Source: a virus (lineage: Duplodnaviria > Heunggongvirae > Uroviricota > Caudoviricetes). Taken from it: 64,000 bases of DNA. The notes under the pieces are model-generated. The model saw nothing but the letters and a program-made list of their open reading frames with translations. It ran no database searches and was not told the origin of the DNA. Both the position numbers and the translations under genes were made by a program. Below are positions 3,345 to 64,000 of this stretch, piece after piece (the stretch's first letter is position 1; each line of letters begins with the position of its first letter). Location: positions 70,287 through 134,286 of IMG/VR virus record IMGVR_UViG_3300042286_000208; one strand, given 5' to 3'.

Positions 3345-4067
3345 ATGTTAGAAGACAAAGATAAAGTAATATCAAATGATCTTTCTGATACTGAAGATGA
3401 TTGGAATGATGATGACTATGGTATGGAGTATGAGGATCTGAGTGCTGAAGAAGCAAACATGTTATCAGAAAAAATGCTAGAGGAATCAATAAAAATTAGA
3501 GAATCAATAGTATATAATGAGACTTCGGAAGAAGACACGGTTAATTATATTGAGCTTAGATCTCCAGCAGACGAAGATGAATCTCCTTTAAAGAGAAAAG
3601 TCAAAGAGCTGGTCAATAAGGGAAAATATGAAAGAAAGACATTTATTGATTATTTAGATGGTGACAGTGAGCAAGCTAGAAAAATGATCAACACATATCC
3701 GAAGAAAAAAGACTTCAAGATGGAAGAGTTCATCATGTGGATAAACTTTCTTGATTATGATATTAAAGTAATTAAAGACAGAAATAGATATGAACTCGGT
3801 GAATTAAGACAGACAGACGGTGATGATAAAATAGTTTCTTTCGAAAATAATGAAAGTTTTGTTCCGATAAAACAACTACTAGTAGAACTAATCAATTCGT
3901 CTAACCTAAAGATTTCGAATATCAAATTCTTTTATAGTGAGAAGCCATCAAATGCTTACAATATTATTGAGCGTTTTAAGAAAAACAATACAATGACAAC
4001 AGATACTTTCGCATTGTGGTTGACACTAATCGGATATACAATAAAATTAGTTAAGAGGGAATCTTAA
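3345..4067 (+). CDS. hypothetical acidic protein
   Basis: ORF with RBS agaaggtga 8 nt before ATG at 3345. Confidence 0.5.
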   Translation: MLEDKDKVISNDLSDTEDDWNDDDYGMEYEDLSAEEANMLSEKMLEESIKIRESIVYNETSEEDTVNYIELRSPADEDESPLKRKVKELVNKGKYERKTFIDYLDGDSEQARKMINTYPKKKDFKMEEFIMWINFLDYDIKVIKDRNRYELGELRQTDGDDKIVSFENNESFVPIKQLLVELINSSNLKISNIKFFYSEKPSNAYNIIERFKKNNTMTTDTFALWLTLIGYTIKLVKRES

Positions 4068-4744
4068 TGGTAACCTTAACTAAAAAAGAAAGAAGTACAG
4101 AACTAAATGAACTAAAGAGAGTTCTTATAGATTTTAAGTCGCTGGTCGAAGAAGATAGTTTTATCATCTACAAAAACAGCGGCTTAATATTCTATATATT
4201 TGATCAAAACGGATTTACTAAAATCATAAAAACTTCAAATTTTCTAAAGATTGAAGACTTTCTTGATAATGATGAATACGTTGATGTAAAATACAGTTTG
4301 TTAAAACAAACAGCGGATCTAAAAAAAGCAGAAGTAACTGAAATTTTCTATGATAGTGACACTTATTCAGTCCAAACAAATATAGATGAAGTCGTTGATC
4401 TTTTACTTATTAAAAAAAAGAAAGATTCTGATAATTTGTTGAAAAATATTATATACAGTACATCTCAAGAAAAATTATTAGAGAATTTTATAGAAGCTAA
4501 TTATAGAGAAAAGGAACAAATCCTGGTATCTACCATCGACAATAAAGTATATCCATATAAAATAACATTTTCAGACGATATCAATTTCAAATTAAAGATT
4601 GAAAACCCTGAGAGTAAATACTATATGAGAACCTTAAATGATGGAGCTTTTATACAAGTAATTACAATAAGTAAATACAAAGAAATATATCACGCCCAAA
4701 CAATTTTGTTTGTTTTTAACTACTTAAACAAAAAAGAGGTGTAG
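4067..4744 (+). CDS. hypothetical protein
   Basis: 225-aa ORF; start overlaps upstream stop (taATGg). Confidence 0.5.
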   Translation: MVTLTKKERSTELNELKRVLIDFKSLVEEDSFIIYKNSGLIFYIFDQNGFTKIIKTSNFLKIEDFLDNDEYVDVKYSLLKQTADLKKAEVTEIFYDSDTYSVQTNIDEVVDLLLIKKKKDSDNLLKNIIYSTSQEKLLENFIEANYREKEQILVSTIDNKVYPYKITFSDDINFKLKIENPESKYYMRTLNDGAFIQVITISKYKEIYHAQTILFVFNYLNKKEV

Positions 4745-10269: not shown

Positions 10270-10890
10270 ATGATAAATAAAGATAAGAATTGTAAAAGTT
10301 GTGCCCACCTAGACGGAGCACATTGTAAAAAATGAGACATTGATATTCCGAACATCCATTCTTTTTCATGCTCCAATTACAGTTTTAAAAAGGAGTTTGA
10401 GAACAAAGGTAAGGTCATATTTGACAGACCAACCCAAGAATTAAGATATGAATACGACTCTTTTAGAGTAGCAGATATGGAGTATCCAAACTATATTACA
10501 ATGGAGTTATATACAGAGGGATCTGATTGGTTTAGATTTAATTACTACTATGTTTTAAAAGATACAGGTCTTAGAGATGGTCATGTCTTTAATGTCATTG
10601 GTAATTTATCTGTGGGAAGAATGATTCGAAATAAAAAAATTGGATCGGGTACATATGTCGATAAACCATATTGGTCTTGGAAATTTGATGATGAGAATAT
10701 AAAAATATCAGACGGATATCTTAAATCAAGAGGTGATGAAGACAATGAGTTCTCTATTAAGATTGAAAAATTGAAAACCATCATAGAGTTGGTTGAAAGA
10801 GTAGAAAAAAGCGGAAATCCGTTGAATGTACCAGACAACGTTAAAGTTCAGTTTATTAGAAGTGAAACATATAACGATCTAGTAAAATAA
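10270..10890 (+). CDS. hypothetical protein (in-frame TGA at 10333)
   Basis: ATG 10270 after RBS ggaga; frame continues through TGA into listed ORF 10477-10890; N-terminal CKSC...HC cysteines. Confidence 0.45.
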
Positions 10891-10904
10891 AAAGGAGAAC
10901 GACC

Positions 10905-11273: not shown

Positions 11274-11610
11274 ATGGGAGAAGATATTATGAATGAAGAA
11301 AGATTGAAGGTATTGTTATACAATGCTCTGGTGTGTTTAGAAGAAAACGGATATGATATAGAACAACTAAAAGAATCCATTGGAATTAAATCTGATGAAT
11401 ATGAAGAGATTATGGATATTTAACTATGAAATATTATTATGGAAATAGTTATAAAGACGCACTCAGAAACGGTCCTGTTGAAATTAAAACCACAGATGCA
11501 CTGAGATCTTATGAAGAAAATTACAGTGTGGTAATACCTGCAGATGAGATTGATCTCGATGAAGATGATGAATCAGAAGAAATTGATTAAAAATAAAAGG
11601 AGGTCTAATT

Positions 11611-18191: not shown

Positions 18192-18632
18192 ATGAAATTT
18201 TTACTATTGAGAACAGATCAAGTAAATCTAAACGGTAGAGTTTATCCAAAAGATTTAGTTACTGAAGTAATAAATGATGAAAATTTTCAAAAAAGATTAA
18301 GAAACAGAGAGTTATTGGGATACATTGGTCAGTCATCAAATGAGATGGAGAGAGACATCAGTAAAGCTTCTCACGTTTTAACCAATGTATATTTCGAAGG
18401 AAATGATTTAATTGGTGACGTAGACATTTTAGAAACACCCGAGGGAATGGCTTTACTAAGCTCTTTACGGGATGGAAGTATAGATTTTGGAATGGCATTA
18501 AGAGGATATGGGGATGTTGAGTGAAATGATAACAAAGAACAAGTAATAACAACTCTAAGTATATCTTCTTTTGATTATGTGTATAGACCATCCCATCTAG
18601 ATAAAAAAAATAAAAATTTAGAAAGAGAATAG
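18192..18632 (+). CDS. possible prohead protease (HK97/S78-like); in-frame TGA at 18522
   Basis: Weak resemblance to prohead protease core (ASHVL..., GMALLSSLRDGSIDFGMAL ~ LVKRGDLNGVSFGF). Confidence 0.3.
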
Positions 18633-18642
18633 GTAAAACAGA

Positions 18643-19746
18643 ATGAAAAAATTATTCACATTGATGCTAGTTTTACTACTAGCTATTGCATTAACTGGTT
18701 GTGTTCTTGATGAAACTGACCCAGACAACACAGATCCTATAATCAACACACCAATATATACCGTAGCTTTTGACTCAGACGGTGGTAGCGTTGTAGAACC
18801 GTTAACCGTGGAGGAAGGAGATATGATAAGCAGGCCACAAATTCCAATGAAAAAAGGATATATGTTTGTTTATTGATATTCAACAAATCCAGAAACAGAA
18901 TATGATTTTACAACAATAATAACAAACAGCATTACCCTTACAGCTTTATGAGAAGAGATTGATTATTCTTATGATATCAACGATATTCCAGAAGAAATAC
19001 AATACTATTTAGGCGAATCTAGCTTCAATCATATAAGCGATTGGATTATAAGCGATGATAATTTAGATGGAGAAATATCTGAAGAAGAAATACTGTCTGG
19101 TTATGAACTAGTGGATGAGATGTTTGGTGGATATGATCATAATGTAGTTTTAAATTCGGAAGATTTATCTGATATGCAATGGTGTATTGACGGAAGCATG
19201 GATCAAGAATATATTGATGCTGCGATTTATGCCATTTCTTATTTTAATGGTATTGAATGGGTTAACGCATCTTATATTATTGAAGATGATTTTGAAAACA
19301 ATTGCTCTTCTTATAAATTTACATTTACTTGAATAACAGTAGAAGACTTATATGATGAGTTGTATGATTCATATATTTATGAAGGTTATGATGAGGATTT
19401 AGCTCATCAAATGGCTATGGACTTTTCAATGGGAGCTATTGCATTTAATAGTTTGGGATTAGATTATGAAAACGAAGACTATTATCATTACGGAAGTACT
19501 GGTATATATTTTATATTTGAGGCGATGGAAGAGTTAACTCAAACAGAAAAGAACTTTGTTGCTCTACATGAAATGGGGCATAGTTTTGGTCTAGATGATA
19601 TTTATGACATTGAATTTGCTGGATATACTTTAATGTTTGGATCAGCAGAAGGACAAGATGAATTACTTCCTATTTTGAGACCATTTGATTTATGGAATTT
19701 AAACTATATTTATAATAATACCGAAGAGGAAGAAGTAGTAGAATAG
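18643..19746 (+). CDS. lipoprotein with Listeria-Bacteroides (Flg_new) repeat and HExxH zinc-metallopeptidase motif; 4 in-frame TGA
   Basis: Signal peptide plus lipobox LTGC; PIYTVAFDSDGG...GYMFVY(W)YSTNPETEYDFTT...ITLTAL(W) fits the Flg_new repeat with TGA at both invariant Trp positions; HEMGHSFGLDD; listed ORFs 18643, 19111 and 19360 share one frame with no TAA/TAG between. Confidence 0.65.
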
Positions 19747-29546: not shown

Positions 29547-29610
29547 TGCTTTAAAAAAATTATATATTATAAAACAGTAGTAATAGTCAATTATAATCTG
29601 ATGTATTACT

Positions 29611-29638
29611 TGAAAGAGCCGCTTTTTCTCTGGCTCTT
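29611..29638 (+). other. hairpin aaagagcc-(11 nt)-ggctcttt immediately upstream of the tRNA
   Basis: 8-bp inverted repeat between RNAP beta-N stop and tRNA. Confidence 0.35.
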
Positions 29639-29645
29639 TACTGTT

Positions 29646-29722
29646 GGACCCTTAGCTCAGTTGGTCAGAGCTCCCGGCTCATAACCGGGTGGTCGAAGGT
29701 TCGAGCCCTTCAGGGTCCACCA
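29646..29722 (+). tRNA. tRNA with anticodon CAT (Met, fMet or Ile2), CCA encoded
   Basis: Acceptor stem ggaccct/agggtcc, D-arm agctcagttggtcagagc, anticodon stem cccgg/ccggg with loop ctCATaa, T-arm gaagg-ttcgagc-ccttc, discriminator a, CCA. Confidence 0.85.
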
Positions 29723-30175
29723 TGAATAATATCAATAATCCTGTAGCCGTACACTACAGAGGACACGTTGCCTGACTAGCGTCCACAGGTTAGCAAGTAT
29801 AAGAGGATGTAGGGCTGGAGCGCATAAGTAGGCCACTTTGTTAGTCGCTCAAAACGGAAGATATCGGGTTTTACCCTAGAGCTCTTCGAGTATAAGAAAC
29901 GTAGATTGTTGGTATTATTGATGGTATTATTAATCATCAAGGTTTTAATCCTGGTCTATCAGGTTAAAATAAGGCGAATAGCCTTCATAGCGTGCACCTC
30001 CTCTAAATATAGCCGCCACAATAAATAGAATGAGTGGTGGCTAACTTATTAAAATCAAATATGTTAAATAGAACCGTTACTTACTTCATTCTTACAGTAA
30101 AAGGATCAGGTGTTGCTGGGAAACCAGTAACCTGAAATATTAGTACGGTCAATATAATAAAAAGACTAGTTAATA
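29723..30175 (-). ncRNA. GC-richer structured non-coding region (3' part of the intron-like element, or an independent RNA)
   Basis: No ORF over 57 aa on either strand even allowing TGA; about 42% GC versus about 28% in neighbours; many short stems. Confidence 0.35.
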
Positions 30176-31099
30176 CTAGTCTTTTTTTATTTCTTTTTTT
30201 AGAATGTTTTCTATGTTTTTAAATTCTGTATATGGTATTCTGATAAGTTTTATATTATTATCTTTACAATATTTTGTTTTTATAGAGTCTTTTATTTTTT
30301 GTTTTTTTAGTTTATTAATTGCTTTTTTTTCATCATTAAACACCCATGGTTTATAATGTTGCATTCCATCATATTCTATACATGTGTTACTTTTAGGTAA
30401 ATAAAAATCAAATCTTAAAAGCTCTTTATTCTTACATTCATCAAATGTATATTCTTCTATATAAGATATATGTTTACTTTCTAAATATGATTTTACTTTT
30501 AACTCACCTTTAGAATTCCTACAAGAGGGACATCCCCCACCACGTAAATGATTGTCTGGAGTTGTATTTCAGGGACCGTGTTTACTACATATTATTTTAA
30601 CTTTTGTCCGAGCGTTTATATAATCAACTTTTGAATAGTCATATTTATTTCCATGAATTTTAATAGCTTTTTCTACAAATTCATCAGTAGATGGTTTTTT
30701 AACATTAGAACATTCAGGACAACCATGTCCTCCTAAGTGTGAATTTGGAGATTGAAGAAAATCACCATGCTCATTACATGTAATTATTACTTTTTCTACT
30801 GCTTTTTTGTATATTGTTTTAGAGTAATCATATTTATTATTATGTATAATATTAGATTTTTCTATAAAATCATTTGTGTTTAATGTTCTTTTTTTAGATC
30901 TAGATTTTAAACTACATTTAGGACAGCCATGACCCTTTAAATGAACTGATGCTCTTTGATAAAACTCTCCATGTTCTGGGCAAATAATCAATATTTCTTT
31001 ATGATATGTTGTTATTTCAGATTTAGAATAGTCATACTTATCATTGTGTATTTCTTTAAATTTGTTGATATAAAAAGAGGTATCATGTTTTTTTGGCAT
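30176..31099 (-). CDS. homing-endonuclease-like protein: three tandem Cys-His zinc-ribbon repeats plus C-terminal Vsr/DUF559-like PD-(D/E)XK nuclease; in-frame TGA at 30569
   Basis: Repeat NKYDYSK-x-Y...IIC.EHG.F...HL.GHGCP.CS occurs three times; C-terminal LRFDFYLPKSNTCIEYDGMQHY fits DUF559/Vsr core; RBS aaaggagg; listed ORFs 30569-31099 and 30176-30364 join across TGA. Confidence 0.55.
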
Positions 31100-31269
31100 A
31101 TAATACCTCCTTTCATCTAGCTGTTATCTTTGTTATCTCTTATTTCTCCTATTTTTCGACCTAATTCAATTAGTAATTTGTTTGTGAACATTAAATAAAA
31201 TATATCCCGATATTATTGAACAGGTTCTCACACCCGTCTGATTTATACTAAAGATAAACCATTTCTTAT

Positions 31270-31499
31270 ACTTTCATATAAGCGTAGACTATATCATCAT
31301 CTCTTTCGAGAGCAGCTTACTTCGGGAAATGAGATTTCTTTCCCTACTCCCTTACGGGATAGTCGTTGGGGCTGGAACTTAGAAAGATCCCTGCCTGCTG
31401 ATTGCCCAATCTCTCAACTTTTCAAACCATGGCTTCGACTCACGTCTCGCAGTGGTATGAGAGCTCTAAGGGGTTTCCAGCATATCAAGCTGTTTTAAC
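31270..31499 (-). ncRNA. group I intron-like catalytic core (P4/P7 elements) on the minus strand
   Basis: Minus-strand CAACGACUAU (plus 31359-31368) matches R element GUUCAACGACUA; GAUAUAGUC (plus 31287-31295) matches S element AAGAUAUAGUCC; the GACUA/UAGUC halves pair as P7; CAAUCAGCAGG (plus 31390-31404) resembles Q element AAUCCGCAGC. Confidence 0.5.
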
Positions 31500-34400
31500 C
31501 TATAATCTCACAATTATAGGGCACTGTTTTAATCGTCAATGCGTCATTCTGGAAAACACACCGGTAGGTGTTAACACAGATTCAATTTCTTCATTAGGTC
31601 TATATTCAGAGTATGGGGCTTCTTTATCATCTAAAACATTAGATATTACACCCTTTAAAGCAGTATCATAACTTAATTTATCACCGATACCAAGAGGAAC
31701 GTTTGATTGAATATAATATTTAATCATTACGCCTTCATAACCTTCGCCATCTTCTTTTGCAGTTAAGCTCTGTTTCTCAGGTCGTTTTTGTTTTAGAAGG
31801 TATGAATTATTTTCCCCAACAAATTTCAATTTCTTTTCATATTTTCCACCGAAATCATTTATTAATTTTACAAGTGAAGGGTTTAAGTCTTCCTTATCAA
31901 CATTATAGAACACTTCTATTTCTTTAATTACCCCGTGGTAGTTAGGATATTTTGTAGATGATGGAAGAATATCTTCAACATCACCATATTTATCTGTGAA
32001 GCTATTTGTTAAGAATCCTTCAATACTGTTATCACCGAAATCGTCATATTCTATAACAGGAGTCGTTTCGTCAACATGATCGCCTATTTTGCTCATACTC
32101 TTAATCTTAGTTGTAGGTGTTAATCTTACCATTTCTGCAATTACAACTCTACTCATGCTCTTCTTACTTAGATTTTTGGTTATTATGGTACTATCTTCGA
32201 AAGAGTTATCTATAGGCGCAATTGCCATTTTAGCTAAGGTACCAACAAGCAACTCAACTTTTCCGTCATCAAATGCCTTAAAGAATACATCATTATAGGC
32301 GATGATATCGTCTTTTTTAAACATGTCTTTTTCTCTTAGTCTCATAATCAGCTTATTAGGTGTGTAGAACGCATTGGCGGAGTTTCTTATAAATGTAGTT
32401 GATAGATCGATGAAATCTTTGGTTCCATCTAAATACTCTAATTCAACTATGTTTGTATCCCTGTTAAAGGTTTTTACAACACCATCTTTTTTTGCTTTAA
32501 ATATGAAATCACTACTTAGAAGGCCTGGAACCACTTGTTCAGCTCCTGTGCTCCATAGTCTAACAGAACCTTTATTAAGAGGCATGTTATGTTTAAATTG
32601 TCCAATTGTCATGGATTGTCTTGATGCATCAGCATGTCTTGATAAGAATGGAGAAAGTAATTCGGAAGCAGATAACATTCTAGTATCTGGTGTATTTTCA
32701 ATGTCTTCTATCTCAGAAATATAACCTCTGATACCTTTAATATGTGGTTGATATGTAAGAGATCTGGTAATACCTGATGATCCACCAAAAGCAGTAGCAC
32801 CAGCAGAATATACAGAAAGTTTATTATTATTAAACTCACGCGTAGCTTGTGAGAATGATGCAGCTTTTTCAAGACCCATGAACCCTTTTTGAGAGGTTCT
32901 GGAATATGTCTCAAGTTCCAACACAGGACTTAATGCAGAATAAGTATTTACAGAAGATATCTTAAGAAGATTGAATATAACAGCATTTTCATTTACATCA
33001 AATGTGTTTCTAGTATTCCCTCTAAGATATCCATTCAGATAATCAATATAGGATTTTATTAGTATTTGATTTAGCATACCTGCTATTTGTTCATAGTTTC
33101 GTAATCTGTAGTTTAATACATTACCAAGCTGTCTATAGCTATTATCTGCTAAAAGAGTATTACAATATAATAGTAAATCTAGAATATTACTTGGTATTTT
33201 TTGTTCGTGTAGTATTTCTTGAGTTATCGGATCGACTAAAACGTTTAGTGTTATCTTCATTGTGTTCTTAAAGTGGGTTTTAGTAGATGTAGATATTTTT
33301 TTAATTAAACCTATTCATTCATCATAAGGTTCTGATGTATTGAAGGAACTTAGGTTAAAGTCATGAGGCTTAGCAAAATATAAACCATTCATAAGAACTT
33401 GATTTTCTATAGTTTCTTTGTAATATAGGTATACGTCTTTGAACTTAATTTCAACATATCCTGGTCTAGGATCTCTATCTTTTGATATTGTGTATGCTAT
33501 TTTATATCTATTCATTGTATTTTTCAAACCATATATCATACCAAGAATAAGAATTAGCGGATAATGAGACCCAGCTATTTTAACTTTACTATATCCCATC
33601 TTATTACCAGTATCAGGAAGATCCTCGAATCTTGTATCATAGATATCCCTATACAAGAATTCAGATAAAGTTTCACTGATAAGTGTGTCCGTCTTATAGT
33701 CTGTCGAGTATACTTTATGTTTGTAAATGAATAAAAGTCTATTGGATCCATCAATAAGTTTGTATCCTATTGGTATAAGATCTTCAGGATATTTCCAATA
33801 TTTTGTAGGAACATCGTTTAATTTTAATTCAGTTGAAATATCATCATAGTTAAAGTTTAATGAGTATCCATTTTTTTCTATAGAGTATATGTTTTTACAA
33901 ACTTCACTATATTCTATATTCTTGATGTTGTTTTCTGAATATGATATTAGATTATCCCCATATTTAACCTTTACTTTTGGATCATTCTTTTTGTTATCTA
34001 TTAGTTTTAATACTTGACTTATAGTTTTAGACAAATAACCCTTTTCTCTATCAATAAATAGAATAGAGTAGTTTGTTGTTATTTTGACTGAATCTGGTGC
34101 AGTTTTGGTCACTGGCAAGAAAGCTAATTGATTGTCTACTGTTCATCTGTTACCATTCAAATAAAGGAAATGATTGTCGATTATTTTTGGAATATTAACG
34201 CTGAATCTTATATCTTTATTAGTACCATTGATATTTACTGTGTAAGCCAAATTTAATTTATAGAGTTGATTGTTTGCATTTGAGGTATCCTCAAAATCAA
34301 TCTTCTTCATAGTTAAAGGTAGAATAGAGTTGTTAGATAAACTAGATGTTATATTAATTATATCATCTTTAAATTGTTTATCTATATATTCTTTTGAAAG

Positions 34401-35651
34401 TATTGCGATTGGGGTGTGTGATAATTCTTTTAGTCTTATATCATTAGCAGCTCTTTGATCTATTTGTTCTTCTATAGATGAGTATTTTTCTACATCTACT
34501 TCTGGTAATTTTTTGAATTCATTATATAGAATTTCCATTTCTTCAGCTACATTTTCTTCTGCCTTTAATATGTTTTGTGACTCTTTTTTCTTAAGACCAG
34601 CATATCTTGTAAGATTGGCCTTTATGGTTGGATCCTCTATCAGTTTATCAACTTCAATTTGACCACTGTCTTCTCTTCTCTTTATGTTCTCTACGATGGA
34701 TAAATATATATTGTCTTGTGGATCAGTATTCGGTTCCACTTCAACGTTTTTAATTTTATTCACTTCATAGAATTTTTTAACTACCTCTTCGAATTTAGTT
34801 TCTACAACAATATCTTTAGAATCAAGGGTTTTATCATTGATTGCATCTTCTTCGCTATACACTTCATCTTGTGAAAGAGGCTCTTGTCCTTTACCGCCAA
34901 GCTTGTATAACTTAAAAAGTCTTTGCATATGTTTGCTTTTTAGTTCATTTATGTCAATGTTATCTAGATCAAATTTAATCATAGAGTGAACTTTAGTGTT
35001 ATAAAAAACAACATATTTTATACCTCTGAAGAAGGCTTCTCTTGTTCCTTCGTCATAATTTCAAAAAGCTTTTGTTATTATTGTCGCAGGATCTACTAAG
35101 AATTCTGTATCACCAACAAAACTTCTTTTTCTTACAAGAATGTGGAAATTGTCTACAGACCCATCATAAGGAACAACCAATATATTGTTTAAATACCCTG
35201 CGTTTTCTATAGATTCTTTTAGCATAGTGAAAAGATATTGAGAGATATACTGTGTTGATCTTGGATTTTCTCCTCTTAATTTCTCTACTAATTCTATAGT
35301 CTGTCTTCACTCATTATTAAAATCATATATAAGGTTTTTATTGCTATATGCCAATATATTTTTACGACCTAAATTTATTTTCTTATTTGTTTTTGAGAAT
35401 ATGTCGTTATAATATTCTTTTAGAGGAATAACAACACGTCTTCTTTTCATAGGAGTAATTCTGAATGGTGTATAAATAGATTTGATATTAGCTCCTCTTA
35501 AAAGTTTAGAATTGATAACATCAATCATAGTTTGCTCTTTTAAGCTAGGTATTAAAATCAAATTGTCCTTATTTTTGTTTTGTGTTTCGAAAAATATAGT
35601 CGGATTCTTATAAACAAGACCATTTCTCGCTTTTGAAAGTTTTAAAATCAT
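31500..35651 (-). CDS. multisubunit RNAP beta subunit (second copy, N-terminal plus middle regions, about 1383 aa); 5 in-frame TGA
   Basis: Listed ORFs 35307, 34143, 33315 and 31536 are one frame joined by TGA at 35307, 35061, 34143, 33315 and 31536; motifs IPKIIDNHFLYLNGNR(W)TVDNQ ~ NGTERVIVSQL; DASRQSMTIGQFKHNMPL ~ NDANRALMGSNMQRQAVPL; APIDNSFEDSTII ~ NGYNFEDAI; IGDKLSYDTALKGVISNVL...VLTPTGVFSRMTH ~ GDKMAGRHGNKGVISKI...VLNPLGVPSRM; ends 12 codons later at TAG 31500 with no C-terminal 250 aa. Confidence 0.7.
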
Positions 35652-36359: not shown

Positions 36360-39314
36360 ATGAAATATAGATTACCTGGTATTTATCTTGGAAATATATC
36401 TATGGATTTATTCATGGAATATATGTCTAATGAAGAATTGAGCAATCAGACAATCACTAATGATTATTATCAAACAAATAATAGAACTCAAAATGTTAAA
36501 GTATTTAAAGTAGAATTCACTTATAATTCAGTGGATTATAATTTTTATACTTATAATATTCTTGATACAGTAAATATTAGAGAAATAATAAGAACTTATT
36601 TTAGAGATATAATTAGTGACACGCCAGACTATGATCAAAATGTAGATGCTATAACTTTTACAGTTCAGACTGCTGATTTTATAGAGAATCCTGTTTTGTT
36701 CGACACACTGGGACAACCATCTATTTATAGTACTTATATGATAAACGACATCGGTGAATATAAATATATGATATCTGTTGAAGGTGAGTTGAATGAAGAC
36801 CTTAACAATTACACCGATCTAAAACAATATGTTGACTCTTCAGAACTAGAATTAGTTCCTGTAAATATATATGATCTCAGATACGCAACAAAAGATTTAA
36901 TAACAACACTTTACGTTGATAAAGATGTTTTTAACGAATCATCTGTTAATTTAATGGAGTTCGTGCTAGATGTTAACGAAGAAATTCAAGAGGTAAAGGA
37001 AAACGTTCTTTATTTTGGTCGAAAAAGTCTACTTAACTACATAGGGGCTGACGGCCTATTTTATTTTAAAGATAAGTTGGGAGGACTTACGAAGTCTCCT
37101 TATAAAAATGTGATGATGTGGGATATCGAAAATAATAGGAATCTACTAGATCAATCAATACAAATAAAGATGCTCTCTCCTGAAAATTCTAGAAATTTCA
37201 GTGGCATCACTGGTGTTGTAAGAACACAGACGGAAAATAACGATAAAGTAGAATTAAACTTTACTAAATATGATAAGTATAGTATAACTAAACAATTTAA
37301 AGAGGTATCTAGCATACCTGGTGGCGAAGAGGATATTAGATTTGAAGATATTGAGCCAAAAATAATAAATACTATAGAGAATGCAGTAAACCAAACACAT
37401 GTTTTTAATGAAAAAAGCATGATAGTATATACTGATTTAGTAAATACATCAACCCTACCCAAATTTAAAGCTATATATAATTGAAATGTTAATGGTGATA
37501 AGAAATACTATATTTTTGATACAATAAGAGGTAGAGTTCCAGAGTTTAGAAATACCGAATTGGATTCTGATAGTCCCACTTTATGTTTATTAGATGTGTA
37601 CCCAAATCCAAAAATTAAAGTAGAATCAATTGGTTCTAGTAAAAATCATAGATTGATTTATGATGTGCACTATGATTCAGAAAGATATGAACATTTTGTT
37701 TTTAGAACTGTCGTTTTTGATAATAAAACATATTACATAAAACTAGCTGATAGTGAAAATGAATTGACTGGTTATATAATAATGACATCCAACACACCAA
37801 ATGCGACTTATACAACATCAGAAGATTTAATTAATGATTTTTCTTTTTCGGAAATGGGTTTAAATGTTGGTTTGAATGACGTTTATCCCCTTTCTTATGA
37901 CAAGATAAATGGTATTGATACCGTTGTAAAATGAGGGCTGGATATTCAGATAACTCCCGAAGAAAAATTCTCAACAGAACTTAAAAAAATAGAAAACGGT
38001 TCAAATGAGATGTTCTATACATTTATGGATCAAAGCACTCTGGATGGAAAGTTATATTTTAAATTCCCTGTAAAACTAGATATTAATAGTACAGAAAAAA
38101 TAGATAACGTCATGGTTACTATGAGAGCAAAAAAGGTAATATCAGCCAATGATTATGAGTTTGAATCATCTGGCTATTGAACAACAACTTTTACAAGTGA
38201 CTATCTTATAACAATACCCGTGTTCTCAGAGTATAACACAGAAGATACGAAACCATACAATAATATATCTCAACATCTAACTCTGAATAATTTTGAGTGA
38301 GTCGTCTCTGATGAAAATTATTCCAAAAAGTACTATGTTATAAACAAATATGACCAAAGCAAAATATATGAGGTTACTGAAATATTAAGTCATGAAAATT
38401 CTCCTCTGAACCCTTATCCTTACAACAACACATTTTCCAAAATAAACAGCAAACTGAGCACAGGCATAAACGAAAACAACACAAATGAATTTGTTGCGAG
38501 ATTAGGTACTAGCATAACAGTAGATGATCGCGGTGAATTGGTTAACTCTGATATAATGGGAACTGACTTAATAGAAGCACTAACGGATGACTTCAAGAGG
38601 GGCTTCAATAATATATTTTACGGAATAGGAAATTATACCTATAACTACACCCTAGATGAACTAGATGATAAACAAAAGACAAGTTTCCTAAGAGATTCTT
38701 TGGTAAATTTTGATAGTTTGAATAAAATGTTAACAGCTTTCCTGAGATATAATTTCATATCTACAAACGATTATCTATATACAATAGATAAAGACTTTAG
38801 AATGGGATTCTTTACTAAAAAAGAAGACAGAGGAATAAGCTCAAACAATATATTCACAAATTGATTAGCTGCAGTTCCTTTGGGGGAAGTTGACGCTGAT
38901 AACTTCAATACATTACAAAAGATTAAAGAGTACGAAAAATTAACATCAGATGAAGATATATCTAAAAGAGAGAGAATTAACTGAATCAAAAATCACCTAC
39001 TTTACAGCAGAGATAAAAATACAACAACAGGATATGCTTTACAAAGAACAAAAACAACAAATCTAAAAGATATTAACAATAAAGACACGGTTGAACAAGC
39101 ATTTTCAATGTTGATGGATCAGAGATATAATGTGACTAAAGTTATTGGATCTTTTTCGAACACAAACATAAGCAATCTTGTTATAATGGATACAAAAGAG
39201 AAGGATCTTTTTTCAGGATCTCATGAACAAGTAAGATTTATTAACTCAAACCAGAAAATAGACGTCATGGTAAACACTTATTTGGATGGTTTTGTTAAAA
39301 AGGTAGGTGAGTAA
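36360..39314 (+). CDS. large hypothetical protein (984 aa, 6 in-frame TGA); candidate virion structural protein
   Basis: Listed ORFs 36360, 37560, 38538 and 39108 share frame 0; junctions re-translated with TGA at 37482, 37932, 38178, 38298, 38862 and 38982 and no TAA/TAG. Confidence 0.5.
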
Positions 39315-56335: not shown

Positions 56336-57007
56336 ATGGACTTAACAAAATTAGAAGCTTGGTTTAATCCAATTAAAATAACAAATACAATTACTGTGAT
56401 TGGATCTGGAGCTTTAGGCTCTTGGATGATTGAAGGTTTAGTTAGAATGGGATTTACAAATATTAACATTTATGATGATGATGTAGTAAATCCTCATAAT
56501 ATTAGCAATCAAAACTTTCTTGAGTCACAAATCGGCGAAGGAAAGATTGAGTGTATGATCGAAAGAGCTAAGGCTATCAACCCTTTTGTAAAAATCAATG
56601 GTCACGGAAGATATAACTTTGATAAAGACAACCCTAATTATTTATCTGGATATGTTTTCTTGTGTCTTGATAATATCGATACAAGACGTATGATTGTAGA
56701 AAACAACCCTTATGTTATGTTTTGGACAGATATCAGAATTGGTTTAGAAGAGGGTCAGGTATACTCTGCCTCTAGAAAAGAAAGACAAGACCTTCTAAAT
56801 ACAATGCAATGGAAACAAGATGATCCCGACAGAGTTGTTAAATTAAGTGCTTGTGGTAGAGAGTTGGGTATTCTCCCTACTGTTTGGTTGGTAATTAGTC
56901 AAGCATTAAATAATTTCGTTCTATACCTGAAACAAAACGAGGGCGAGAAAAACTTTAAAACTATTATTTCAGACTCAGTAGCTATGAAAACAGTGGCCTT
57001 CAAGTAG
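56336..57007 (+). CDS. ThiF/MoeB-type E1-like adenylyltransferase
   Basis: Rossmann ITVIGSGALGSW; YDDDVVNPHNISNQNF (E1 D.D.V..SNLNRQ); CLDNIDTR; C-terminal SACGRELGILPTVWLVISQALNNF matches MoeB cysteine-loop region. Confidence 0.7.
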   Translation: MDLTKLEAWFNPIKITNTITVIGSGALGSWMIEGLVRMGFTNINIYDDDVVNPHNISNQNFLESQIGEGKIECMIERAKAINPFVKINGHGRYNFDKDNPNYLSGYVFLCLDNIDTRRMIVENNPYVMFWTDIRIGLEEGQVYSASRKERQDLLNTMQWKQDDPDRVVKLSACGRELGILPTVWLVISQALNNFVLYLKQNEGEKNFKTIISDSVAMKTVAFK

Positions 57008-59169: not shown

Positions 59170-60351
59170 TTGAATCAAGAAAACGAAAAAGTGAACAAGA
59201 CAGAAGAAAAAGATCTGGCATATCTTCTTGGTATTGAGGCTTTTAAAGAAATATTAAGAGCATCTAATCAAGATAAAGATCCGTCAACAAAAAGAACTCT
59301 GTTAGATGATCCCGAAATCGTATTTGAATATTTATATTTAGAAATACCCACAAATCATCCAACAAAAGTAGGAGAAGAAGTCATTCTTATTGAAGAAGAC
59401 AGAGTTGGATTCTTAAAAGGTTGGGAAGAGGAAGAAGAAAAATATCAACTTCAAATAGATGCTGAAATTGAAGAGGCTTATAGATCTAAGGAATTATACC
59501 CTAGAGAGGGTATTTTTACCTTTGACAATGATTCCGGTAAAAAAGATGAAAAGGCTTACGACTATAGCAAATATAGATATGTGGAGCCTAAACTTATCTA
59601 TGATAGGTTCAATAAGGTTGAGACATCTACTAAAAAAATAGTTTTTCCCAAAGATTTATCTGAGTTATTTTGGAACATATTTCAAACCGCATCGGGCAAA
59701 GAAATCATGTTTTATGGAGAAATGATACAATCTGAAGAAGATAAAGATCTATACACTGTCTCAGGTATGAATTTCCCACCACAAAAAAATTATGGTGGTT
59801 ATGTAGAGACTGTTGATGGAAAATATGAAACATGGGTATTTAATGAAATTATACTTAAAGGAAAAAAGATTCCTCTGCATGTTCATACTCATCCAGATTT
59901 TAGTGCTTTCTCATCATCTGTTGACGAAAGACAAATTAAACAATATATTGAAGATAACGAAGGAAACCCTTTTGTTGTTCAACTAATAGTATCTAACCCT
60001 AGAAAAGGCAGCTATTTTATTAGATGGTTTGATTTAGAGAATGATACATGGGAAAGACCTAATGTGGAATTTACTTTTGATAAATATGATGTAGAAGCTG
60101 AATTCCCAGGAATATTCCAATTTGATGCACCACCTAGAGTCACAAGTTCTCCTTCGTCGAGACTTAGTGATTTCAACTATAAGTCTTGGTATAGTGACTT
60201 CAAAGGTAGAGGTTTCTATGAAGATGACGAAGATGAAGATCATGAAGAAGCTAAAGACTTATATCATGATGAAGATGGTGAAGACTTGTCAGATCCAAAA
60301 GAATTCGACAAATATTTTAGCAAGAATTATAAAAAATTAATTAAAAATTAA
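59170..60351 (+). CDS. JAB/MPN(+) JAMM-family metalloprotease
   Basis: Perfect JAMM motif H-T-H-PDFSAFS-S-SV-D (HxHx7Sx2D) in HVHTHPDFSAFSSSVD with upstream Glu; acidic C-terminal tail. Confidence 0.7.
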   Translation: MNQENEKVNKTEEKDLAYLLGIEAFKEILRASNQDKDPSTKRTLLDDPEIVFEYLYLEIPTNHPTKVGEEVILIEEDRVGFLKGWEEEEEKYQLQIDAEIEEAYRSKELYPREGIFTFDNDSGKKDEKAYDYSKYRYVEPKLIYDRFNKVETSTKKIVFPKDLSELFWNIFQTASGKEIMFYGEMIQSEEDKDLYTVSGMNFPPQKNYGGYVETVDGKYETWVFNEIILKGKKIPLHVHTHPDFSAFSSSVDERQIKQYIEDNEGNPFVVQLIVSNPRKGSYFIRWFDLENDTWERPNVEFTFDKYDVEAEFPGIFQFDAPPRVTSSPSSRLSDFNYKSWYSDFKGRGFYEDDEDEDHEEAKDLYHDEDGEDLSDPKEFDKYFSKNYKKLIKN

Positions 60352-61255: not shown

Positions 61256-61474
61256 ATGGTAGTTTATGTAGGTACAGCATTTAACAATTCACAAGTAGAG
61301 GTAGCTCCAACATCTGTTAGAGTTAGCGAATTAGGATTAACAGGTACAGTCACCCTTAACGGTATAGTTCTTCTTAACGTTGGGCAAACTGTACAATCAG
61401 CAATCGATTCAACTGGAGCTCAAGCTCCATATTATTTCTTATCAGTTAGCAAACAAGCTAATGGCGGGAAATAA
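61256..61474 (+). CDS. small protein ending in GGK; candidate ubiquitin-like beta-grasp (ThiS/MoaD-like) modifier
   Basis: 72 aa; C-terminus ...SKQANGGK; internal TVTLNGIVLL resembles the ThiS v.vNgeiv strand; strong RBS; codon usage GC-richer than neighbours. Confidence 0.3.
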   Translation: MVVYVGTAFNNSQVEVAPTSVRVSELGLTGTVTLNGIVLLNVGQTVQSAIDSTGAQAPYYFLSVSKQANGGK

Positions 61475-61503
61475 TTAAAAGTTAAAAAATAAATAGTATA
61501 GAA

Positions 61504-61545
61504 TAGGGAATCTTCGATCAGATTCCCTATGATACTGTTTTACTT
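61504..61545 (+). terminator. terminator hairpin tagggaatc/gattcccta plus T-rich tract
   Basis: 9-bp perfect inverted repeat followed by tgatactgttttactttaatc. Confidence 0.5.
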
Positions 61546-62345
61546 TAATCATCAAAAATATTACTAATTTAATCTTTGTTTTAATAACAGATAATAACCC
61601 TGTTTGCGGACTGCAAGCAAGGAATTAAGGTCGGGATGACCGAAGTTACACGGGTGTTGACAATTGTTAATATTAGAAAATAATTAACGCCGCGGGTGAA
61701 GCTGCATTAATATTAGTTCTAGAACTTTTACGATTCGGTTATTTTAAATTTATAAATTTTAAACCAGGAATCTCTTCAGTTTTTCTAGATTTGTTACAGG
61801 ATCCAGGACGACCGAGTGACATATTTATGGGATTGGACCTTTATAATTTTAAGAAACAGGATGGACACTGCAAAGATTCATTTGGATCCAGATACATTTG
61901 GTGGATTACAACAGATTTATCTTGACTTTTCCCCATATTTAAGTTAAAATATATGTCTGGCAGATGATTGTCTCCAAGACAAATCGCCATTGCAGGTTGC
62001 CTCCATGTAACAAGGAGGATAAATTTTTTCGAAATGAATGCCAGTATCCTCAGTTCCGAATCTATATTTTGGATATGGATGTAACAGCTGGTTTATTTTA
62101 TTTCGCTAGAACATCGATGCACAATTCATTATTTCTTGAATGAGAAGACGTAGCGTCTACAGTTTTTTGCCTGATGCGCTTAATTATTTTTAAATTTAAC
62201 CCAGGCCAGGGTAATTTTGTGCAAGCTCATCACCATGATCCAGAAGGATATTTAAATTTATTTATTGGAGCACGTACTCCGTCATCCTATTATATTACAT
62301 AAATTAGTAAAAAAAATTAGAATTTAAAAAATTCAGAAAAGAAGG
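61546..62345 (+). ncRNA. long GC-richer non-coding region upstream of RT (candidate retron-type ncRNA or other RT-associated RNA)
   Basis: No ORF of 60 aa or more on either strand; about 38% GC; 11-nt TTACTAATTTA (61561-61571) is exactly complementary to TAAATTAGTAA (62300-62310) just upstream of the RT RBS. Confidence 0.3.
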
Positions 62346-62354
62346 TTGACTTAT

Positions 62355-63533
62355 ATGTCTAAGCAAAGTTATTATTATATTAAAAGTAGACCTTATAATG
62401 AAATGTTATGGTGGAAAAGCCATGGCAAAAGTCCGTTTGTAAATTTTATCGAGTTTAAACCAATTACAAAATGGTCCAAATTTAGATTAAACAAAGACTT
62501 TGACAAAAAAATAGATGATATATATGCTATTCATCAAATCATTAAAGATCTACCAGAATACAGATTTTATAATTCTTCAACAAAAGAATATTATATTAGA
62601 AACACACCCACTAATACTTTTAGACTAAGAAAAAGAAAAGGTGGATATAGAGAAATTACTGTATTCTCTGAAGAATACAAACAGATGCACTCTATGCTTA
62701 TGGAAATATATCAGGATTTATTTCCGGCATTTCCTGAGTCAACAAGTGCTTACATCAAAGGAAAATCACAACTAGATACAGTAAAAAAACATAAGGATGC
62801 TAAAGTTCATTTGTCATTAGACTTGGCTGAATTTTATCCTTCTATTAAAACAGAAAATTTAGCTTCTGTTCTTAAAAGTTTGGCAATTGTTGTTGCAAAC
62901 ATGACTGAAATCTCTATTGATAGACTTGCTGAGATATCCACATTTGGTGGATCTTTAGCGCAGGGAAGTTCTATCAGCCCTATTCTATCAAACATATTTT
63001 CTTTACCTTTGGACTATGAGCTATACGAGTATGTTAAAAATACTAACATTACATATACAAGATATGCTGATGATATTAGTTTATCTAGTCCCAATATTAT
63101 TGCATTACCAAGAAAGAAAGAGTTGGAGCCATTCGTAAATCGTTTTCAAGAAAGACTTGATAGATTATATGGTGGGGATCTAAAAATTAATAAATCAAAA
63201 ACAAAATTACAGTTTGAAGGTCAGATCAAAGTATTGGGTATATGTATCAATCATGATGAATCCGGAGAAGCACACTTAAGTGTTGGCAAATCCAGAAAAC
63301 AAGAATACGGTAGAGAACTATTTCAATTACTTTGTGAAATAGCTGACGATCAAGTAGATGACAAACTAATTGACTATCAAACAGTAAGAGGTAAGATTGA
63401 ATATTTAAAACAGTTTGAGCCAATTTGGTTTGAAAAGCAACAAAGTAAATTAAGAGTAACTTTTAATTTTACAGGGGATGTTTGGAGATATATATTAAGC
63501 AGAATAACAATCCCAGAAACAGAAAATGAATAA
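62355..63533 (+). CDS. reverse transcriptase, retron/Abi/DRT-like, RT domain only
   Basis: RT motifs RKRKGGYREITVFS (1), HLSLDLAEFYPSIK (A, F/YPSI typical of retron-type RTs), AQGSSISPILSNIF (B', QGxxxSP), YTRYADDISLSS (C), IKVLGICIN (VTG-like). Confidence 0.75.
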   Translation: MSKQSYYYIKSRPYNEMLWWKSHGKSPFVNFIEFKPITKWSKFRLNKDFDKKIDDIYAIHQIIKDLPEYRFYNSSTKEYYIRNTPTNTFRLRKRKGGYREITVFSEEYKQMHSMLMEIYQDLFPAFPESTSAYIKGKSQLDTVKKHKDAKVHLSLDLAEFYPSIKTENLASVLKSLAIVVANMTEISIDRLAEISTFGGSLAQGSSISPILSNIFSLPLDYELYEYVKNTNITYTRYADDISLSSPNIIALPRKKELEPFVNRFQERLDRLYGGDLKINKSKTKLQFEGQIKVLGICINHDESGEAHLSVGKSRKQEYGRELFQLLCEIADDQVDDKLIDYQTVRGKIEYLKQFEPIWFEKQQSKLRVTFNFTGDVWRYILSRITIPETENE

Positions 63534-64000
63534 AGAATAGCATCGTTTCAAAATAACAAAAAATAACGATCTTTTGTTTAATACAAAAACGAGCACAATA
63601 CATCTTATGTAAATAAGATGAAAATAAAGTTGGGATGACGTACAACGTCATCGATATCTAGATGACCAATCTCTTCGAAGTTTGTTGATTAATTACCAGG
63701 AGCTGGCGCGTAAATTTTTTTATTTCGACACGGCGACTTTAAAGTATACAGCTTCCCAGGTTTTCGAGAAAGAGATCTACTCAACTAGGGATACTTTGCC
63801 AGTAATAAGGGGCACCTCGATAAGGTCATGTATTCCCACACGAATACCTTAACCAAGTTGGGCATACAATAATAAAAAAAAAAAATTACCGGGGTCCCTT
63901 CAGAGTTTTCTTCAGTTTTCGCGAACGCCAATCAGGGTGAAAGGGTGCTAAGAATCTTAAGCCTCTAACAACGTTGGCCGAAGTCAACTTTATGAAACTC
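63534..64000 (+). other. GC-richer non-coding region downstream of RT, continuing past window end
   Basis: No ORF; hairpins catctta/taagatg and gatgacgt-aca-acgtcatc; CCWGG-like motifs. Confidence 0.3.

Follow-up and report, generated by a model that had tools for sequence, protein, structure and literature searches.

To our knowledge, the retrons that have been studied mechanistically are all bacterial immune systems, with RNAs of approximately 150–250 nt and an effector. Stand-alone (msr-msd)-RT cassettes also occur among retrons, and within the motifs NAXXH and VTG conservation is highest at H and G (Mestre et al., 2020; PMC7736814). In the Staphylococcus jumbo phages MarsHill, Madawaska, Machias, DC4, and S6, a retron-like reverse transcriptase (RT), gp206, is accompanied by a 1.2-kb upstream non-coding region (bioRxiv 10.1101/2020.12.14.422802). 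In the type VI retron, the template and an ORF are fused in a hybrid RNA (hyRNA), and translation of this ORF is derepressed when the template is reverse-transcribed (bioRxiv 10.1101/2025.10.22.683967).

In the present study, we describe a locus at the end of a stretch of phage DNA of 64,000 nucleotides (the window), in which an RT gene is positioned between two related large structured RNAs of ~750 and ~820 nt, designated U (upstream) and D (downstream), an arrangement that has not been described for retrons. Both are several times longer than described retron non-coding RNAs. The duplicated RNAs have grown three- to four-fold, with the retron-like core being kept, and no recognizable effector accompanies them. 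The features of the locus are listed in Table 1.

Table 1. Features of the RT locus, in window coordinates.
Feature	Position	Strand	Remarks
Terminator-like hairpin	61503-61530	+	After the 72-aa gene; overlaps invariant CTATGATACT
CTATGATACT	61527-61536	+	Invariant in 6/6 upstream alignments
RNA U	61561-62310	+	750 nt; P1 5' strand to P1 3' strand
U P1 5' strand TTACTAATTTA	61561-61571	+	11-mer of the first-pass annotation; a2-like position
U conserved 5' core	61572-61630	+	ATC, P2, P3, AATTAAGG
U P2 hairpin	61575-61591	+	Covarying
U P3 hairpin	61599-61622	+	Covarying
AATTAAGG in U core	61623-61630	+	
U hypervariable interior	61631-62294	+	664 nt; ~35% GC
TTACA junction of U	62295-62299	+	Conserved; directly before P1 3' strand
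U P1 3' strand TAAATTAGTAA	62300-62310	+	a1-like position; exact reverse complement of TTACTAATTTA
Retron-type RT ORF	62355-63533	+	392 aa; N-terminal extension ~85 aa; YADD, QGSSISP
RNA D, 5' part	63560-64000	+	Cut by the window end
D P1 5' strand AAAATAACG	63560-63568	+	Terminal G
D conserved 5' core	63569-63629	+	ATC, P2, CACAATAC, P3, GAAAATAAAG
D P2 hairpin	63572-63588	+	100% paired; 4/6 pairs changed on both sides
CACAATAC in D core	63594-63601	+	Invariant
D P3 hairpin	63602-63619	+	95% paired; 6/7 pairs changed on both sides
GAAAATAAAG in D core	63620-63629	+	

The reverse transcriptase and its phage setting

Regarding the RT, a first-pass annotation of the sequence had proposed a retron-type enzyme of 392 aa, and the translated ORF carries the motifs listed there (KGGYREI, DLAEFYPSI, QGSSISP, YTRYADDIS, and VLG), with RVT_1 as its sole Pfam domain. 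The retron assignment was upheld by PADLOC, NCBIfam, structural comparisons, and database neighbors. The best PADLOC matches were retron RT_II-A and RT_III-A (E ~1e-42), with the best 25 all being retron RTs, while a profile search of the PDB placed the retrons Ec83, Ec78, Ec67, and Ec86 on top (E ~1e-18), with group II and DRT2 entries only near 1e-4. Among 5.8 billion proteins searched, every named neighbor was retron-type. When an AlphaFold model of the RT (pLDDT 80) was compared with the PDB by Foldseek, the 17 best matches were retron RTs and group II enzymes came below them; DRT2 ranked 25th and DRT9 46th, and the DRT2, DRT9, and DGR structures were all below the retron RTs. Judged from these comparisons of sequence and predicted fold, in which type I-A and II-A retron RTs (Ec78, Ec83, and St85) were the closest, the enzyme belongs to the retron or retron-like lineage and not to the group II, DGR, or DRT lineages.

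The RT is nevertheless divergent. Its score with the NCBIfam model retron_St85_RT (158 bits) is below the cut-off of 235, and it stays under the curated cut-offs of all named retron families, which by this measure places it outside each of them. In an alignment with Ec83, Ec78, and Ec67, the NAXXH position reads TVKKH and the VTG position VLG, and unlike retrons, the protein has ~85 additional aa at the N terminus. Across the RT clade, region X invariably has the H and region Y the G, and N, A, and T are replaced. YADD is intact, and the RT is under clear purifying selection.

The genome is that of a lytic-type jumbo phage, the relatives of which read TGA as Trp; both points had been overlooked in the first-pass annotation. 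The RNA polymerase subunit encoded in the window is closest (~32%) to those of the above Staphylococcus jumbo phages, which are of the same type, with split multisubunit RNA polymerases. This phage clade has conserved the RT gene and inherits it vertically: the RT is 63–89% identical in 11 related metagenomic phage contigs, and both flanking gaps are retained. The scan of a single metagenome added only two loci. The order of a 72-aa gene, a gap of 535–880 nt, the RT gene, a gap of ~870–1160 nt, and a small gene is kept in 11 loci, and the genomic position of the ~3-kb unit is shared by all related phages. The gap between the 72-aa gene and the RT gene is conserved in L007, L010, L012, L015, and L016. 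A search of IMG/VR with RT peptide patterns found no relatives.

The contig L001 is 100% identical to the window and extends beyond it; the downstream gap measures 924 nt there and is followed by a gene for a 125-aa zinc-ribbon protein, in line with the previous proposal that the element reaches past the window end. Neither flank contains an ORF longer than 59 aa under translation table 11. Since the relatives read TGA as Trp, alternative codes also needed to be considered, and no ORF in the gaps was conserved between loci even when TGA, TAG, or TAA was taken as sense. The G+C content of the upstream region had been given as ~38% against a background of ~28%, which was overstated: we measured 33.4% at 61546–62345 and 37.7% at 63534–64000, compared with 30.7% for coding and 27.5% for short intergenic DNA. 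No effector gene was recognized among the neighbors on either side by Pfam, PHROG, or PADLOC, and what had been noted for the window also holds beyond its end.

RNAs U and D

A long-range helix, P1, closes the RNA domain predicted in each gap. In U, the strands of P1 are the 11-nt inverted repeat previously likened to retron a1/a2; the repeat is exact, and its strands lie 739 nt apart. Since ~21% of Markov simulations of an 880-nt AT-rich stretch yield a perfect 11-nt inverted repeat, this match is not significant by itself and becomes significant only because it covaries in homologs. Compensatory changes were found in L016 (TTAACTTA/TAAGTTAA), L010 (AACTAATTTA/TAAATTAGTT), and L015 (TTCGATTTAT/ATAGATCGAA), and the repeat therefore behaves as the a1/a2 analogy had suggested. 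The mean duplex energy of P1 was -9.0 kcal/mol for cognate strands and -5.0 kcal/mol for non-cognate strands, and the minimum-free-energy fold of U is closed by P1 (z = -5.4). Across helices P1–P3 in six loci, 96% of cells were paired and 18 of the 26 pairs had changed on both sides, as counted by script on a manual alignment. The position of the branching G is occupied by A in U.

The first-pass annotation had the upstream region begin after a terminator, and a terminator-like hairpin does precede U. The CTATGATACT element that overlaps it is kept even in L016, in which the surrounding hairpin differs, and the hairpin and element (61503–61536) may be a boundary or start signal of U. We rejected CTATGATACT and TTATTGTG as general promoter-like motifs; they are not general to this genome.

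The G+C-rich downstream flank, which had been read as the continuation of the same element, instead corresponds to another RNA, which is a paralog of U and has a closing helix of its own. The whole of D occupies 2336–3158 of L001 (823 nt), and the partner strand of its P1, CGTTATTTT, is beyond the window (L001 3150–3158). The terminal G of the P1 5' strand is present in all 11 distinct D copies examined and is predicted to pair with C. Compensatory changes in P1 were found in L018 (AAATAGCG/CGCTATTT) and L011 (TTTAAATG/CATTTAAA), and L013 has a helix of 18 bp. Over helices P1–P4, 93% of cells were paired and 25/32 pairs had changed on both sides; none of 500 shuffles equaled this pairing, and slid controls gave 36–53%. 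The P1 3' strand is preceded by the same TTAYA junction as in U. On the 3' side of D, two covarying hairpins, both of which display the invariant UUAUUGUG, stand immediately 5' of the RBS of the zinc-ribbon gene (L001 3234–3611). In the alignments of U and D, G-U cells outnumber A-C cells by ~22 to 4, an excess that points to RNA transcribed from the + strand; the helix alignments were made by hand, which is a bias toward pairing.

U and D are paralogs as judged with a covariance model, R1, which was trained on D alone and still finds U. In the window, R1 matched D at 63561–63638 with 96.6 bits and U at 61564–61639 over its full length (E = 0.006); U was matched full-length in five phages, and nothing else in the window was credible. 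Matches at 11318–11415 (E = 0.06) and 10869–10902 were rejected because they lie inside small coding ORFs. The P2 hairpin of U resembles that of D from the same genome. The relationship is visible only in the short conserved core and through the covariance model, and a direct local alignment of U and D was not significant (score of 31 against a shuffle maximum of 32). When the D core was searched for with a loose DNA pattern, at least 120 matches were obtained, which were judged to be mostly due to chance; L019, the sole locus from this pattern to be re-screened with R1, did not match.

The interiors of U and D (600–800 nt) have no sequence in common between phages, and their length and G+C content are kept. 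The U interior is 49.7% identical to that of L007, compared with 49.4% after shuffling and 80% at the nucleotide level for the RT genes. Faster-than-neutral evolution of the interior cannot be claimed from this because four-fold degenerate sites in the RT gene are near saturation (50% identity versus 40% for random sequences). A helix closing the interior in the manner of an msd stem (P5) was seen in L001, L007, and L012, but overall was no better than non-cognate controls (cognate -9.3 and -10.9 kcal/mol versus non-cognate -8.6 and -9.7 kcal/mol). The mean z-scores for the folding of the whole RNAs were ~-2.9 and -3.4, and an RT coding control was only marginally weaker (-2.2). No complementarity was found between the interiors and the rest of the window, and no diverged copy of any U or D segment was present in the 61 kb upstream or 9 kb downstream. 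No Rfam family matched the window at the gathering score, or positions 61400–64000 and L001 1–3800 at E ≤ 10 or 5; the search for Rfam families and group II domains V and VI that had been suggested for the two flanks thus returned no match on either.

Normal-sized relatives of U and D exist. The RTs of L140 and L141 are 31–33% identical to the present RT, and their RNAs are 230–270 nt in length, with a closing helix of 8–13 bp that is directly followed by an unpaired G in a retron-like manner. One of these RNAs is upstream of its RT gene and the other is downstream.

Relationship to described systems

Considering these results, the locus is probably a phage-borne, effector-less module derived from a retron, in which a single divergent RT of the retron clade is combined with two greatly enlarged cognate RNAs that are paralogs. 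The conserved core of each RNA comprises the closing helix P1 in the position of a1/a2, P2 and P3 in that of the msr, AAUAARG, and the UUAYA junction. The RT would bind this core in both U and D and start cDNA synthesis at the P1 junction in the fashion of a retron RT, and part of the variable interior may be copied into single-stranded DNA during infection. Candidate roles are a decoy or regulator on the side of the phage, or the exclusion of competing phages. An extended version, which we consider possible but rather doubtful, is that the RT and two kilobase-scale templates of this TGA-recoding jumbo-phage clade yield long ssDNAs in infection, with the template being free to diverge; such a "giant retron" would be an offensive, anti-defense, or competitor-exclusion device and not one of bacterial abortive infection. 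The altered NAXXH and VTG motifs, the sub-cut-off RT scores, the A at the branching-G site of U, the predicted pairing of the G of D with C, and the size of the RNAs were counted against the preferred explanation, as were the unsupported msd-like stem, the modest folding z-scores, the lack of an effector, and the hand-made alignments.

The likeness to retrons also extends to the layout: the non-coding RNA adjoins the RT gene on the same strand, a long-range helix replaces a1/a2, 5' hairpins take the place of the msr and a variable region would take that of the msd, and region X retains its H and region Y its G, with N, A, and T replaced. The lack of an effector is shared with the stand-alone cassettes. 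Unlike retrons, there are two paralogous RNAs of 750–820 nt each, one on each side of the RT gene; U is without the branching G and the G of D is pairable with C, and the module resides in a lytic-type jumbo phage and not in a bacterial defense island. The Staphylococcus jumbo phages also have a retron-type RT, no effector, and a non-coding gap of approximately one kilobase before the RT gene, but their RTs are only 27–30% identical over ~55% of the length. The RT of MarsHill has 501 aa, against 392 aa here, and differs in its N-terminal domain. The gap upstream of it consists of approximately five repeats that each contain the same hairpin, and not of one P1-closed domain, and the next gene follows the RT gene at once, with no downstream RNA in the place of D.

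An analogy may also be drawn with the type VI retron Retron-Vpa2, in which a structured RNA that serves as the RT template directly precedes a small ORF, as D precedes the zinc-ribbon gene and U the RT gene. In contrast to that system, no HTH protein or small toxin was recognized in the present locus, and the RNA is far larger and phage-borne. Similar to GOLLD and ROOL, large structured RNAs of phages and prophages with 600–800 nt, U and D are phage-borne and combine a conserved core with variable portions; unlike them, they have no Rfam match, are strictly tied to the RT gene, and carry a retron-like core. If the RT copies U and D, this would reveal the use that a virus makes of retron machinery, could provide a natural enzyme-RNA pair for much longer ssDNA than current retron editors, and would explain the RT genes and kilobase gaps of the Staphylococcus jumbo phages.

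Alternative readings

Two other candidates had been named for the element, an atypical group II intron carrying its ORF in domain IV and a DRT2/DRT9-like system, and neither withstood the comparisons. It is scarcely credible that the ~3-kb unit is a mobile retroelement, be it such an intron or another retrotransposing unit. An RT between two structured non-coding arms is in keeping with this idea, but the NCBIfam group II RT/maturase model TIGR04416 reached only 50.5 bits, with a cut-off of 300, and Rfam yielded neither a group II domain nor any other family even at E ≤ 10. Moreover, the arms are two independently closed, paralogous domains and not intron domains I–III and V–VI, the position of the unit is constant in all related phages, and a second copy is absent from the 64-kb window. 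A DRT2/DRT9-like (UG-class) or DGR-type system, which would produce concatemeric or homopolymeric cDNA or mutagenize a target, is also very improbable. It would account for a non-coding RNA beside a stand-alone RT in a phage, and DGRs are the best-known phage RT systems. However, the NCBIfam Drt2 model NF041746 gave 43.9 bits against a cut-off of 390, the PADLOC matches and Foldseek ranking described above favor retron RTs throughout, and no template/variable repeat pair of a DGR was found in the window or 9 kb downstream.

The remaining alternatives concern the RNAs. U and D may mainly be cis-acting leaders, i.e., the 5' UTRs of the RT gene, the translation of which U would control, and of the gene for the basic zinc-ribbon protein, respectively, a reading that overlaps with that of a retron-derived module and which we consider unlikely as the main function. 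The 3' strand of P1 in U terminates 45 nt upstream of the RT start codon, D is followed by the two UUAUUGUG hairpins directly before the next RBS, and the hyRNA of the type VI retron offers a precedent (bioRxiv 10.1101/2025.10.22.683967). The 5' core of D also contains an invariant CACAAUA that is complementary to UAUUGUG; however, neither side ever varies, and hence there is no covariation. Conserved pairing that sequesters either RBS was not found, an RNA of 750–820 nt with a free-running interior would be an unusual regulator, and the zinc-ribbon protein of L001 has no detectable homology to the zinc-binding protein beside the L141 RT. An independent function for U and D, as ornate large RNAs comparable to GOLLD and ROOL, is less likely still; in this case, they would have descended from a retron non-coding RNA and have ceased to serve as RT templates. 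Their length, conserved ends, and variable interiors fit this reading, as does the absence of a priming G in U, whereas the Rfam search matched neither GOLLD nor ROOL nor any further family, and the RT is under purifying selection with YADD intact. All loci show U and D in strict linkage to the RT gene, and their P2 hairpins change in concert; both observations favor a common protein partner that is encoded between the two RNAs. Should U and D not be copied by the RT, they would constitute a novel class of large, structured RNAs in phages. The self-complementary AU motifs UUUAAA and AAAUUU, which could mediate RNA-RNA contacts, are enriched four- to six-fold in their interiors.

Reverse transcriptase and its non-coding flanks

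This is a genuine, conserved element that represents a novel version of the retron theme; its anatomy, namely the lineage of the reverse transcriptase (RT), two paralogous RNAs each closed by a long-range helix, P1 (U upstream and D downstream of the RT gene), and conservation across a phage clade, is well supported. The first-pass annotation had proposed a retron, a DRT2/DRT9-like system, or a group II intron. RVT_1 was the sole Pfam domain of the RT, and its best 25 PADLOC models were all retron RTs (top E = 2e-42). A PDB search with a profile built from 13 members of its clade returned the retrons Ec83, Ec78, St85-family, Ec67, and Ec86 at approximately 1e-18, whereas group II and DRT2 structures were near 1e-4. 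Among the PDB matches of an AlphaFold model (pLDDT 80, pTM 0.74) in Foldseek, the best 17 were also retron RTs. Regarding NCBIfam, retron_St85_RT reached 158 bits, under the cut-off of 235; the group II RT/maturase (50 bits versus 300) and Drt2 (44 bits versus 390) identities were rejected. Rfam yielded no matching family, including group II domains, retron msr, GOLLD, and ROOL, and the group II and DRT2/DRT9 options were dropped on these grounds.

In residue-level alignments, the RT reads TVKKH where retrons have NAXXH, and VLG for VTG. The H and G of these motifs were the most conserved residues in the analysis by Mestre et al. (PMC7736814), and both are invariant throughout the RT clade. 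This tight clade comprised 21 clusters of 63-100% identity in a large protein database, outside which identity fell sharply to 33% or less. Sequence comparisons thus place the RT on a divergent, separate branch among retron-type RTs.

The exact RT protein was present on six metagenomic contigs. One of these (L001) matches the final 2776 bases of the window with zero mismatches and runs 9.5 kb further; on it, the non-coding stretch downstream of the RT is 924 nt and ends at a basic 125-aa protein with a CxxC...CxxC zinc-ribbon-like motif. In 11 further loci with RTs of 63-89% identity, the order of a 72-aa gene, a 535-880 nt gap, the RT, a gap of approximately 870-1160 nt, and a small zinc-ribbon-type gene was kept in all, as judged on whatever portion each contig reaches. 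Alignments of each gap showed conservation confined to its ends, approximately 110 nt on the 5' side and 60-110 nt on the 3' side. The GC contrast reported earlier (38% versus 28%) exists but is smaller, at 33.4% (61546-62345) and 37.7% (63534-64000) versus 30.7% in coding and 27.5% in short intergenic DNA.

In-frame TGA occurs at conserved Trp positions in the RT genes of relatives (L007 4001-5185, L012 1524-2702). TGA is the stop codon of 8 of the 42 long ORFs in the window, and several of these run on in frame for 130-880 codons when it is read as sense, which points to probable code-4-like recoding in this phage clade. The gaps were therefore re-read with TGA, TAG, or TAA treated as a sense codon; the loci shared no recurrent open frame, and both gaps are thus non-coding.

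Coordinates and sequence details of the features
Feature	Location	Strand	Detail
RT ORF	62355-63533	+	392 aa; motifs quoted in the first-pass annotation present
RNA U	61561-62310	+	Domain closed by P1
RNA D	63560 to L001 3158	+	Same build as U, then 3' extension
U P1, compensatory change	L016		5' strand TTAACTTA; 3' strand TAAGTTAA
U P1, compensatory change	L010		5' strand AACTAATTTA; 3' strand TAAATTAGTT
U P1, wholly different sequence	L015		5' strand TTCGATTTAT; 3' strand ATAGATCGAA
P2 likeness, U and D	L001		Loop UUAAU in both
P2 likeness, U and D	L016		Identical stems; loops GAAA and GAAAU
P2 likeness, U and D	L015		UCUGA/UCAGA stems in both
Candidate ubiquitin-like conjugation genes	56336-57007, 59170-60351, 61256-61474
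ORFs continuing past TGA	31536-34982	-
ORFs continuing past TGA	36360-39300	+

Two paralogous RNAs

As had been noticed, the 11-mer at 61561-61571 is perfectly reverse-complementary to 62300-62310. Approximately one fifth of Markov simulations of this stretch yielded a perfect inverted repeat of 11 nt, and so the observed repeat by itself proves nothing; the two segments form the closing helix P1 of U, with compensatory changes in related phages. Mean energies of P1 strand pairs were -9.0 kcal/mol for cognate versus -5.0 kcal/mol for non-cognate strands, a test that is independent of the alignment. P1 is followed by ATC, the small hairpins P2 and P3 (9 bp with a bulge), and AAUUAAGG, and a conserved UUACA directly precedes its 3' strand. 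Across six manually aligned loci, 96% of cells in the U helices were paired and 18 of 26 pairs had changed on both sides. The terminator described before the upstream region was recovered as a terminator-like hairpin at 61503-61530. CTATGATACT (61527-61536), 25 nt upstream of U P1, is invariant in all six phages having the region, even where the hairpin around it differs, and further exact copies in the window all fall within coding sequence; it could be a U promoter or processing signal.

In D, P1 is AAAAUAACG/CGUUAUUUU, covarying to AAATAGCG/CGCTATTT in L018 and TTTAAATG/CATTTAAA in L011 and reaching 18 bp in L013. It is followed by AUC, P2, an invariant CACAAUAC, P3, and AAUAARG, with UUAYA directly before its 3' strand. 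In nine sequences, 93% of cells in the D helices were paired and 25 of 32 pairs had changed on both sides; none of 500 shuffles attained the observed level, and slid partners paired at 36-53%. The alignment was made by hand, which favors pairing, with stems as ungapped blocks. G-U cells outnumbered A-C cells by approximately 22 to 4 in U and D combined, and the folded strand is therefore the plus strand. Two consecutive covarying hairpins 3' of D P1 (L001 3166-3217), each with an invariant UUAUUGUG in the loop, immediately precede the RBS of the zinc-ribbon gene. An invariant CACAAUA in the D 5' core (63594-63601) is complementary to UUAUUGUG; neither side varies, and the pair may serve as a protein operator or make contact through a kissing interaction or pseudoknot.

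A covariance model trained on nine D cores only recovered D copies outside its training set (L010, L016, and L017) and gave full-length matches to the U core at 61564-61639 (E = 0.006) and in L007, L010, L016, and L012, with no other credible match over the 64-kb window. These matches identify the two RNAs as paralogues. Within one genome, their P2 hairpins are more alike than either is to P2 elsewhere, as would be expected if a single factor, in the simplest case the RT, recognized both.

U interiors were 49.7% identical between phages versus 49.4% when shuffled, while RT genes were 80% identical at the nucleotide level. The four-fold degenerate RT sites are themselves near saturation (50% identity versus 40% at random), which fits drift free of sequence constraint, and accelerated evolution cannot be claimed. 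Interior length is kept at 600-820 nt (shorter in L015) and G+C at 33-40%, four-fold sites having approximately 11%. All 15 interiors (including window 61631-62294 and 63630-64000) show a 4-6 fold excess of the AU palindromes UUUAAA and AAAUUU (TTTAAA, AAATTT) and AATTTT; each RNA has several, and a CCCAGG- or CCGG-like run often comes next. Mean whole-RNA folding z-scores of approximately -2.9 (U), -3.4 (D), and -2.2 (RT coding controls) weakly favor structure in both RNAs. No helix closing the interior had general support across loci, and interiors matched nothing in the rest of the window. An A-run in D (63872-63886) varies by 1-3 nt among contigs with identical RT protein, reflecting either homopolymer assembly noise or genuine length variation.

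Distant relatives, known systems, and possible mechanism

On L140, a contig whose RT is 31% identical, an upstream RNA of approximately 270 nt is closed by GUCUAAUC/GAUUAGAC, directly followed by an unpaired G, a hairpin, and CAUUAAGG. On L141 (RT 33% identical), an RNA of approximately 230 nt downstream of the RT is closed by a 13-bp helix and then G. The wider lineage therefore includes both positions and the canonical "a2 + G" layout at normal size; both RNAs are present in the window's clade, each expanded approximately three-fold. The G after the P1 5' strand is kept in all 11 distinct D copies, and U has A at this branching position. By homology, the RT would bind the core common to U and D, initiate at the P1 junction, and copy the interior into cDNA; this inference is weakened because U lacks the G and both signature motifs of the RT are altered.

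A template/variable repeat pair was not found in the available sequence, and no effector was recognizable among the RT neighbors. The single fixed genomic position and lack of a second copy in the 64-kb window give no sign of mobility. Literature searches returned no description of an RT with paralogous kilobase-scale RNAs on both sides. The 'hybrid RNA' of type VI retrons, in which the RT template is fused to a downstream ORF (bioRxiv 10.1101/2025.10.22.683967), is a useful analogy. The Staphylococcus jumbo phage MarsHill (bioRxiv 10.1101/2020.12.14.422802) has an RT only 27-30% identical and, unlike the window's clade, no downstream RNA. Its 1.24-kb gap upstream of the RT (MW248466, 1645-2885) holds about five repeat units, each with the hairpin ATTATATGAATACGTATAATG, preceded in at least the last three by a TTCTATAATTAATTTATAGAC box; it resembles an array of small RNAs or promoters, unlike U and D.

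Genomic setting

Window genes include multisubunit RNA polymerase beta-subunit pieces, DNA polymerase, DnaB, and SbcC. The RNA polymerase piece is closest (approximately 32%) to Staphylococcus jumbo phages SA1, S6, and MarsHill, Listeria LPJP1, and Yersinia phiR1-37; no nucleotide-level relative was found in the phage collection. The 'split' minus-strand polymerase pieces resemble a single gene because TGA-ended ORFs stay open with TGA as sense.

A ThiF/E1-like protein shortly upstream of the RT (PADLOC E1-E2, 8e-14), a nearby JAB/JAMM protein with the motif HTHPDFSAFSSSVD (PADLOC JAB, 1e-4), and the upstream 72-aa protein, which ends in ...ANGGK, may constitute a ubiquitin-like conjugation set just upstream of the RT. 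ThiF (4019-4702) lies directly upstream of the ncRNA-RT on L140, and a 79-aa homologue of the 72-aa protein (2699-2938) lies 1.1 kb downstream of the RT on L141; the proximity may reflect either shared phage synteny or a functional link.

Other window gaps without an ORF of at least 90 aa (table 11) are 29547-30568, 18525-19359, and 31100-31535; the only tRNA in the window, tRNA-Met (29646-29722), lies within one of them, and some may be coding under TGA recoding.
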